This document shows, one piece after another, positions 10,201 through 10,965 of a stretch of 44,529 nucleotides of DNA (position 1 is the stretch's first letter; each line of letters begins with the position of its first letter). The stretch comes from Escherichia phage SP1. The notes beneath the pieces are model-generated. The model was not told the DNA's origin. It saw nothing but the letters and a program-made list of their open reading frames with translations, and searched no databases. Both the position numbers and the translations under genes were made by a program. Location of the stretch: the sequence record PV610739.1; one strand, 5' to 3'.

Positions 10201-10965
10201 TTAGCGCGGAATACCGCAAATCTCGTTTAACGTCTTCACATCCAGCGCCACCGCCGTGGACTTCGGCTTGTCCGGGTATGGAATGAACTGTTCAACTTCA
10301 GGCCACGCCGCGATCAGCTTCTTGTCAGTATTGTGCATATCCAGCACGCCGGTAACGGTTAGTTTGAACGCGTCATACTTCGCACGCAATTCACGGCGGG
10401 CCTTGTCGTTGCGGTCCAGTCGCTTGCAGAAATCATGATCTGCCGGGTAGTCTGCGCGACCGCGCGGGAGATATATCGGCAGCGCTTTTCCATCTTCGTC
10501 CACTTCGCACACTGACGCGAGCATAATTTCCTCGTACCCCGGTACAATATCGCTGAGGTCCGGCGCGAGCTTATTCATATATTTATCTTCCCAGTATCCG
10601 CGATGAACGCGGTATTTACGACCGTCGCCGCTCAATGACAAGGTGCGAACGTTACCGCCTGCGTTGATTTCGAAAGTGGCGTCATAAACGCTGCCGATAC
10701 CTTTCGGGCGGTCGGTGTTATAGCTATATGTCGCCTTGTTGGTATATACGCTGACGCCGTACATCTGCGACTGGTCATCGCGGATTGATACAATATATGC
10801 GCGTAGCTCGGCGAACGTGTGAATGCCTTTTGGCATACAGTGCAACGTGATGTCGTACGCCAGGTCGCGAGAGTCCATCATGATTTTTTTGGCTGCAGTC
10901 GTGATTTCGTGGTCGCGCAGGATGTTAGCCAGAATCTGGTTTTTAATGTCTTTAGTCAGTCTCAT
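10201..10965 (-). CDS. reverse-strand hypothetical protein (moron candidate)
   Basis: 254-aa ORF antisense to the head module; start ATG 10965 (MRLTK) with GAGGAAA RBS; no recognisable catalytic motif. Confidence 0.6.
   Translation of the reverse strand: MRLTKDIKNQILANILRDHEITTAAKKIMMDSRDLAYDITLHCMPKGIHTFAELRAYIVSIRDDQSQMYGVSVYTNKATYSYNTDRPKGIGSVYDATFEINAGGNVRTLSLSGDGRKYRVHRGYWEDKYMNKLAPDLSDIVPGYEEIMLASVCEVDEDGKALPIYLPRGRADYPADHDFCKRLDRNDKARRELRAKYDAFKLTVTGVLDMHNTDKKLIAAWPEVEQFIPYPDKPKSTAVALDVKTLNEICGIPR

Follow-up and report, generated by a model that had tools for sequence, protein, structure and literature searches.

The genome of Escherichia phage SP1 (PV610739.1), the stretch of 44,529 nucleotides that is called the window below, carries in its head module, between the spanin pair and the head scaffolding gene and on the opposite strand, a 254-codon gene that we identify here as nmad5 (Table 1). 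This is a genuine, conserved and non-essential gene, already known both as a protein family and, in the genus Dhillonvirus, as a locus of escape from the host immunity system Tmn. Taking all the results together, the explanation that we favour, with a confidence a little better than even, is that nmad5 encodes an early-expressed, non-catalytic binding protein, organized as an antisense unit, in which the substitution K216E changes function toward Tmn. What is new here is a confident model of the protein that has no solved relative, the lack of an invariant catalytic-type residue, the lack of a hypermodification cassette in the genome, the replication or early context of the family elsewhere and the enrichment of the 9-mer ATTGGTTGC. 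For the window itself the result is mainly one of annotation: an "unknown antisense gene" becomes nmad5, which has been studied genetically in sister phages.

A whole-genome BLAST comparison with phage Haito_Bas83 (Bas83) showed the window to be a complete, circularly permuted Dhillonvirus genome. In a megablast search with positions 9000-12500 there were 158 matching phage records, nearly all named as Escherichia or Shigella Dhillonvirus, the best match over these 3.5 kb being Bas83 (98.4% nucleotide identity). Because no integrase is annotated in Bas83, the phage appears to be a virulent E. coli siphophage of this genus.

Identity and conservation of nmad5

The initial annotation of the window had described a well-formed antisense open reading frame (ORF) of 254 codons between the spanin pair and the scaffold gene, and had recognized no domain in its product. 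The frame stands exactly where it was placed; the statement on domains has to be abandoned. The profile hidden Markov model search that had been proposed aligned residues 1-253 of the product with the entire profile (positions 1-206 of 206) of Pfam PF18757, Nmad5 or nucleotide modification associated domain 5, scoring 190 bits (E = 7e-56) where the gathering score is 27, and the product also matches PHROG 1965 ("unknown function"; E = 7e-59). The motifs of the family are all found in the window protein, namely the N-terminal RLTxxIxxxIxxN (R2, L3, T4 ... N14), the central GG (G103-G104) and the C-terminal TxxKLxxAWPE (T213, K216, L217, W221, P222, E223) and LNxxxG(L/I)P (L246, N247, G251, P253). 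The gene already bears the label Nmad5 in SECphi18, Ioannina and UDS3lw. No match was obtained in NCBIfam, and none at E <= 1 in PADLOC-DB, whose models cover defence genes and not anti-defence genes.

Conservation of the frame among relatives, on which the initial annotation had made its reading depend, was found. Searching with tblastn gave 146 phage records in which coverage was 80% or more and identity for the most part 85-99%, nearly all of them Dhillonvirus-like (about 158 such genomes) and always with the gene in the spanin-scaffold slot; the Bas83 protein is 99% identical to that of the window. Pairwise Nei-Gojobori comparisons of six orthologues yielded ratios of nonsynonymous to synonymous substitution rates (dN/dS) of 0.09-0.26, with dS values of up to 0.69, and purifying selection acts on the frame. 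Scanned in full with HMMER, a set of 1.84 billion representatives yielded only 83 relatives (E <= 1e-3), each of them a stand-alone protein of about 170-255 amino acids (aa). Orthologues with as little as 27% identity occur in unrelated phages, and the hosts over which the family is spread include E. coli, Pseudomonas, Vibrio, Bordetella and alphaproteobacteria. The gene has also been lost naturally, with only a 74-aa stump left in JL1 and a frameshift due to a 20-bp duplication in UAE_MI-01.

Long antisense ORFs do arise in this GC-rich genome, one of 365 aa (11923-13020, minus strand) lying opposite the major capsid gene as a shadow ORF, and because of it the length of an ORF is by itself no evidence of a gene. 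That nmad5 is another such non-coding frame, and its annotation an artefact, we regard as practically excluded: this reading is refuted by the Pfam match, by the distant orthologues in unrelated phages, by dN/dS values far below 1 and by the phenotype of a point mutation in the gene (see below), and no plus-strand gene overlaps nmad5.

Taken mechanically, the ORF extends to a TTG codon at 11010 and would encode 269 aa. We rejected this start. The ATG that gives 254 aa is the true one, because the homologues, in every case, start with MRLTK and because Bas83 has another gene directly upstream, ending 39 nt before this ATG. A GAGGA core precedes the ATG in each of the five aligned relatives that have nmad5 immediately after the promoter.

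Escape from Tmn and the role of K216

The orthologue of nmad5 was studied in the Dhillonviruses SM_A8 and SM_S22 by Yamashita et al. (Commun Biol 2025; PMC11846954), and the escape mutants obtained on Tmn-expressing E. coli carried nmad5 K216E in SM_A8 and K296E in SM_S22. These changes were both necessary and sufficient, as reversion restored sensitivity to Tmn and the change alone conferred resistance; the phage with nmad5 deleted was viable and still restricted by Tmn, and cloning of the gene failed, with apparent toxicity (PMC11846954). The two residue numbers designate the same position, K296 being K216, because the SM_S22 coding sequence (CDS; 1506-2510, minus strand; 334 aa) consists of the 254-aa protein plus a spurious extension of 80 codons antisense to the scaffold gene. 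Having translated both genes, we reject as an annotation artefact the 334-aa form and, with it, the "truncated N-terminus in SM_A8" of that paper.

The window gene has the same length and locus as these orthologues, in the same slot and orientation and with the same promoter region, and its product shares with theirs about 87% identity and an identical C-terminal K216 motif. The differing residues (about 13%) lie mostly at positions 50-130, and the window lacks the gene of 104-109 aa that precedes nmad5 in SM_A8 and Bas83. Residue 216 is the wild-type lysine (GVLDMHNTDKK216LIAAWPEVE; SM_A8 counterpart GVLDIHNTDKKLIKAWPEVE), in the most conserved motif of the family, T-x-x-K-L-x-x-A-W-P-E. Judged from its sequence, the window phage carries the Tmn-sensitive K216 allele, and the published K216E edit should transfer directly to it if the phage is used therapeutically.

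Because deletion of nmad5 gives no escape, Nmad5 is not the sole trigger of Tmn. We read K216E as a change of function, because the null allele does not escape and because only one substitution was recovered in a dispensable gene. In this scheme the surface around K216 would decide whether Tmn senses infection, and K216E would be a gain or change of function that either masks the true trigger of Tmn or blocks Tmn.

Tmn is a membrane P-loop NTPase whose activator, the phage protein RIIB of T2, binds to it directly (PMC13001434), and one may ask whether Nmad5 is likewise a direct protein trigger (pathogen-associated molecular pattern) that is bound by Tmn and whose recognition K216E abolishes. 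Such a role would agree with the fact that independent escape mutants of two phages hit a single residue, with reversion restoring sensitivity and K216E sufficing alone, and it has precedents in the activation of Tmn-25 by RIIB (PMC13001434) and in other Dhillonvirus proteins that trigger other systems directly (Ksap1 for Avs2, the portal protein for RAZR). A model with Nmad5 as the sole trigger does not allow, however, that the delta-nmad5 phage stays sensitive to Tmn; moreover, a single specific substitution was recovered, with no nonsense or frameshift mutants despite the dispensability of the gene, and Nmad5 resembles RIIB neither in sequence nor in profile (hhalign probability 0.2%). We therefore consider direct triggering very improbable.

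RIIB, like Nmad5, is a non-structural phage protein in which a single missense change gives escape from Tmn, and it is a replisome-associated early/middle protein (PMC13001434), Nmad5 being syntenic with replication genes in other phages. RIIB nonsense mutants escape Tmn (PMC13001434), whereas the nmad5 deletion does not (PMC11846954). At the hhalign probability given above we reject Nmad5 as a relative of RIIB, and identity with two other triggers was rejected as well, as Ksap1 is a different Dhillonvirus protein of 74 aa and the trigger of RAZR is the portal protein. In the main text of the report on the SECphi18 escape-mutant screens (Stokar-Avihail 2022) the loci mentioned are those for SSB (which binds single-stranded DNA) and DNA polymerase, not nmad5.

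Conservation and predicted fold of the protein

In an alignment of 65 diverse Nmad5 proteins (MAFFT) only L217, W221 and N247 are invariant, G104, P222 and L246 are conserved in more than 90% of the sequences and R2, T213, E223 and P229 in 86-88%; not one invariant D, E, H, K, C or S was found among the 65. Among the Dhillonvirus proteins the two end segments (residues 1-20 and 180-254) hardly change, and variation is found at residues 50-130, a middle region that also varies in length across the family. The AlphaFold2 model built with the same alignment is a confident one (predicted local distance difference test score, 89.8; predicted template modelling score, 0.83) and has three helices at the N terminus and short ones at the C terminus, with a beta-rich middle (79-126) and a long helix (178-209) between them. 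The structure-based search that the initial annotation had called for brought this model and no solved relative: the PDB contained no match by sequence or by family profile, a Foldseek search of the PDB with the model gave only hits with E > 2, and the BFVD structure search returned nothing other than Nmad5 proteins. On these data the core of Nmad5 would be formed by the N-terminal helix and the C-terminal helices, K216, L217 and W221 being part of it, with the variable region in the middle, and the protein would act by binding rather than by catalysis and would not be a base-modifying enzyme.

Genomic context of the family and the DNA-modification label

The family owes its name to linkage with modification genes (Iyer 2013, as cited in PMC11846954). 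This linkage is real in the Yuavirus/M6-like phages, where Nmad5 stands between an aGPT-Pplase1/HMUDK_hel gene and a thymidylate-synthase-like gene of the hypermodification cluster for 5-hydroxymethyldeoxyuridine (hmdU), a placement that was seen only in Yuavirus-like phages. In the lambdoid phage HK542 the gene that immediately follows N in the pL operon is Nmad5, and homologues are also common in Shiga toxin (Stx) phages. In metagenomic phages it adjoins PolA, in company with a DUF2800 exonuclease and an Enc34-type SSB, or comes after a PolIII-alpha gene, or lies between a helicase gene and a ParB-like gene (two phages, in one of which a methylase gene is next). Over the roughly nine other phage lineages sampled, the common setting of Nmad5 is an early replication/recombination module and not base modification.

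A direct comparison with the proteins of M6-like Pseudomonas phages (Yuavirus) gives a full-length alignment at about 25-30% identity, in which the R-L-T-x-x-I-x-x-x-I-x-x-N helix, the central GG and the T-x-x-K-L-x-x-A-W-P-E ... L-N-x-x-x-G-L-P region are shared. The Dhillonvirus protein is, however, 50-70 aa longer owing to an expanded beta-rich middle, and its gene is in the head module on the opposite strand and adjoins no kinase, aGPT-Pplase or hydroxymethylase gene, whereas the M6-like gene belongs to a nucleotide-metabolism operon and is inside the 5-hmdU cluster. The lambdoid proteins (HK542_033 and HK244 orf01, also in Stx1/Stx2 phages) are full-length Nmad5 members (E = 3e-72 to Pfam) which, as in the window, occur without hypermodification genes, in an accessory-gene slot and presumably with early expression. 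They differ from the window protein in length (207 aa), in belonging to temperate phages, where their gene comes right after that of the antiterminator N in the pL operon, and in that the BLAST similarity between them is limited to the C-terminal 100 residues (33% identity).

Neither a hydroxymethylase, an HMUD kinase, an aGPT-Pplase/ADDT nor a glycosyltransferase was found in the window genome, where the only modification genes are those of Dam-type methyltransferases, 20 kb from nmad5, and where the neighbours of nmad5 are the spanin and scaffold genes. Linkage to nucleotide or DNA modification genes is thus missing here, which weakens the function read from the name and not the membership in the family. 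We found no report on a biochemical activity of any Nmad5 member in the papers searched.

Could Nmad5 still be what its name and Yamashita et al. (PMC11846954) make of it, an enzyme that modifies DNA or nucleotides, or else a cofactor that such an enzyme cannot do without, with an undetected modification of Dhillonvirus DNA influencing Tmn? The family name and the real linkage in the Yuavirus/M6-like phages would speak for it, as would the ParB-like gene following Nmad5 in two metagenomic phages with a DNA methylase next in one of them, the conservation of the polar residues R2, T213, E223 and N247 at 86-100% and the presence of DNA methyltransferase genes in this genome. Yet beyond those Dam-type enzymes no partner is encoded here, Nmad5 also comes right after N in lambdoid/Stx phages and occurs in phages with only replication genes nearby, and the protein has neither an invariant catalytic-type residue nor a match to an enzyme fold. 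The M6, ViI and SP10 pathways of thymidine hypermodification have been reconstituted in vitro in a paper that never mentions Nmad, and Dhillonviruses are sensitive to restriction-modification when compared with the 7-deazaguanine-modified Queuovirinae (PMC8594841). Finally, the known trigger of Tmn is a protein and not DNA, and the deletion of nmad5 leaves sensitivity to Tmn unchanged. We consider a modifying role quite unlikely, and for this phage the widely copied label "DNA modification enzyme" is probably mistaken, being weakened because there is no cassette, no invariant catalytic residue, no enzyme fold match and, for the most part, a replication or early synteny. Weakening this label redirects experiments to the binding partners of Nmad5 rather than to nucleoside chemistry.

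Transcription signals and a repeated motif upstream of nmad5

The spanin pair on the low-coordinate side of nmad5 is the 3' end of a late transcription unit, and the scaffold gene on the other side is divergent from nmad5. In a scan of positions 9600-11400 the predicted sigma-70-type promoter of nmad5 was the only promoter-like site found. The TTGC of its -35 element is invariant in nine Dhillonviruses, and so is ATTGGTTGCACACCAACA, which includes the last three bases (ATT) of the -10 element; on the 3' side the -10 element is followed by GGTTGCACACCAAC, then by the ribosome-binding site (RBS) and then by the ATG of nmad5. The whole 150-bp region between nmad5 and the scaffold gene has a column identity of 87% over the nine phages, well above the conservation of the synonymous sites of nmad5.

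The converging transcripts of o-spanin and nmad5 have in common a GC-rich hairpin, which lies 7 nt past the nmad5 stop codon, has a free energy of -17.1 kcal/mol on either strand (z = -2.6 and -3.4) and carries a U-rich tail on each side, and which is credible as a bidirectional terminator of both units. The stop codon of o-spanin (TGA, 10184-10186) is in the loop of this hairpin, so that o-spanin translation ends inside the terminator structure. With its own RBS, a predicted promoter and this common terminator, nmad5 is, on the signals read from its flanks, an autonomous antisense unit, and here the initial annotation, which had pointed to autonomous-looking transcription signals, an upstream region bearing GCAACCAAT and a shared hairpin terminator downstream, is borne out in each part.

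The upstream region contains two direct copies of ATTGGTTGC (GCAACCAAT on the plus strand), one in the promoter spacer and the other overlapping the -10/+1 region, and both are invariant across the relatives; the copy proximal to the gene belongs to an imperfect palindrome, TTGGT-N5-ACCAA. Counting both orientations, the genome has 15 exact copies of the motif, compared with 0.68 +/- 0.80 in dinucleotide shuffles, which makes it the tied commonest 9-mer of the genome, and Bas83 has 13 copies. Placed on an approximate gene map based on Bas83, 8 of the 15 copies are intergenic and most of the others are close to gene boundaries. For some ten the distance to a downstream gene start is 12-72 nt, the genes being chiefly early/middle ones or those of two antisense islands, and before early/middle genes the copies frequently form pairs, in direct or inverted repetition. 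Preceded in this way are, among others, the small genes with which the window opens, Lar, the primase-helicase region and a 168-aa gene beside a Dam-like methyltransferase gene (the Bas83 counterpart bears the label "DNA ligase"), and the SSB gene is preceded by a pair with one mismatch. No copy was found before the terminase, portal, capsid and tail genes, two shared divergent regions excepted.

Lying over the -10/+1 region, ATTGGTTGC would suit an operator, and upstream of nmad5 it is likely an operator or a promoter element. We rejected it as a fixed -35 or -10 element, since spacings and orientations differ between sites. Over the genome it has the look of an operator or promoter element that serves a regulatory circuit of Dhillonviruses not yet described, and a candidate binder of the motif is a protein of 109 aa encoded at 41546-41875 (plus strand), just upstream of the primase-helicase gene. 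This protein is called "transposase" in Bas83 and has a C-terminal helix-turn-helix (Pfam HTH_23, E = 5e-7; Sigma70_r4_2, E = 3e-6). The motif offers a testable handle on early/middle regulation in Dhillonviruses; we met no publication on this regulation, although no literature search was aimed at it.

A copy of the motif at 27106-27114 precedes the only other antisense island of the late region (25861-27050, minus strand), between the tail-tip and tail-fibre genes. This island consists of a small hypothetical gene and a gene whose 324-aa product matches DUF6453 (E = 4e-119) and is labelled "membrane protein; moron" in its Bas83 orthologue.

A variable antisense island and the moron question

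In different Dhillonviruses the nmad5 promoter precedes one to three genes. A gene of 104-109 aa stands between the promoter and nmad5 in Bas83, SM_A8, JL1 and UAE_MI-01; it belongs to PHROG 24635, and some 60 of its 72 records are Dhillonviruses. Following nmad5, about 16 records have a 184-aa gene for a beta-clamp-like protein (PHROG 3007, mislabelled "RusA-like"; Pfam DNA_pol3_beta_2 at E = 5e-5, below the cutoff). Both genes are absent from the window, where the island takes its minimal form of nmad5 alone. The spanin-scaffold slot is thus a hotspot of gene gain and loss of which nmad5 is the constant occupant. Distant homologues of the 109-aa neighbour occur in Escherichia and Salmonella phages of about 155 kb. 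The 184-aa gene is also on the minus strand of the record at 5-7 kb in several other siphophages among the matches listed, a placement that suggests a similar slot.

The initial annotation had interpreted nmad5 as a moron, and this holds in part. The gene is autonomous, with its own promoter and terminator on the predictions above, it is dispensable and it occupies a slot with gene flux. On the other hand, it is not sporadic but near-universal in the genus, only the degraded copies of JL1 and UAE_MI-01 having been found (the 109-aa and 184-aa neighbours do occur sporadically), its family is normally in replication/early modules, and its GC content (52.3%) does not deviate from that of the genome (54.4%). 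As the phage appears virulent, the sense of the term that implies a benefit to the lysogen is not applicable. Because its promoter has a motif common to early/middle genes, nmad5 looks like a relocated early gene rather than recently acquired cargo.

A related possibility is that nmad5 is a classical anti-defence gene of the moron type, directed against some other host immunity system, with the link to Tmn incidental. It would be in keeping with an autonomous antisense unit in a slot of gene gain and loss, with dispensability in the laboratory, with a variable middle (50-130) between fixed termini, which is a pattern of arms-race proteins, and with the N-proximal position of the lambdoid homologues in the pL operon, a slot that in lambda holds ral and sieB. 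The near-universal presence in the genus and the overall dN/dS of 0.1-0.26 are at odds with it, however, and the wide spread of hosts would be expected of a conserved housekeeping target more than of a defence system specific to certain strains; the missing PADLOC match counts in the same direction, although those models describe defence and not anti-defence genes. Of the host-interaction or defence/anti-defence function that the initial annotation had envisaged, the published escape from Tmn by K216E is the part that has found support, and no experimental anti-defence phenotype has been reported. We regard a dedicated anti-defence role as unlikely.

Proposed function

We return to nmad5 as an early-expressed binding protein. 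The gene would be transcribed with the early/middle genes and not with the late genes around it, a timing that we infer because ATTGGTTGC is in its promoter and because Nmad5 is found elsewhere in replication/recombination or immediate-early operons. Its target would be a host factor or the replication apparatus, and the toxicity reported in E. coli would follow from this. The early/middle binding protein, the host or replisome target and the change of function by K216E are each proposed with moderate to low confidence.

Several points weigh against this explanation. The lack of an invariant catalytic-type residue is a weak negative, coming from a 65-sequence MAFFT alignment with a mean identity of 22%, and R2, T213 and E223 could form a site together with the invariant N247. 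The proposed early timing depends on the sharing of a promoter motif and on synteny in other phages, and shuffled versions of this 1.8-kb region likewise give about one promoter match of 9/12. Lastly, the toxicity and deletion phenotypes come from one paper on sister phages whose proteins are 87% identical, not from this genome.

Mapped features and additional observations

Table 1. Positions of nmad5, its signals, its neighbours and the repeated 9-mers (window coordinates, except for the genes of Bas83 and WF5505)
Feature	Position	Strand	Basis or remark
nmad5 CDS (Pfam PF18757 Nmad5)	10201..10965	-	ORF and translation; 254 aa from ATG, start MRLTKDIKNQ
Shine-Dalgarno GAGGAA	10972-10977	-	Read from sequence; 6 nt upstream of nmad5 ATG
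Predicted sigma-70-type promoter	10995..11024	-	-35 TTGCAA (11024-11019), 18-nt spacer, -10 TATATT (11000-10995); 9/12 match
Two direct copies of ATTGGTTGC (GCAACCAAT on +)	10989-10997, 11003-11011	-	24 and 38 nt before ATG
Putative bidirectional intrinsic-terminator hairpin	10176..10194	both	Common to converging o-spanin and nmad5 transcripts
i-spanin gene	ends 10053		Overlaps o-spanin gene; N-terminal transmembrane segment
o-spanin gene	9956..10186	+	Translation, lipobox LSAC; annotations of SECphi18 and Bas83
Head scaffolding gene	11116..11819	+	Divergent from nmad5; ATG 11116
ATTGGTTGC/GCAACCAAT sites	40, 71, 781, 3340, 10989, 11003, 27106, 30169, 31830, 31847, 34788, 41347, 44162, 44197, 44479
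ACGGCAGCG sites	2629, 4955, 6627, 7449, 8955, 21325, 22545, 26231, 28143, 28675, 31108, 34425	+
ACGGCAGCG sites	22881, 32841, 34583	-
109-aa gene of Bas83	5808-6137	-
184-aa beta-clamp-like gene of WF5505	1706-2260	-

The scaffold gene has in its 5' leader, some 25 nt ahead of the start codon, a perfect 7-bp inverted repeat (GAGCGGG-TGG-CCCGCTC, approximately 11073-11091, plus strand). Over the nine Dhillonviruses the repeat is almost wholly conserved, four of them showing single-base changes, and in the late scaffold/capsid transcript it may form a regulatory hairpin.

A protein of 154-168 aa encoded at 31311-31817 (minus strand) is called "DNA ligase" in several relatives. It has no Pfam match and is far too small for a ligase, so the label is probably a propagated mis-annotation. 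The protein is found in 155 records and is 73% identical to SM_S22 CDS0035; because it is present in 155 genomes, CDS0035 is probably not the strain-specific anti-Tmn "ORF35" of the Tmn paper.

A second 9-mer, ACGGCAGCG, also has 15 copies in the genome, compared with 0.86 expected, and 12 of them are on the plus strand. At least three of the plus-strand copies (26231, 31108 and 34425) lie in regions of minus-strand genes. The skew between strands could be driven by codons or could reflect a Chi-like or packaging-oriented signal.

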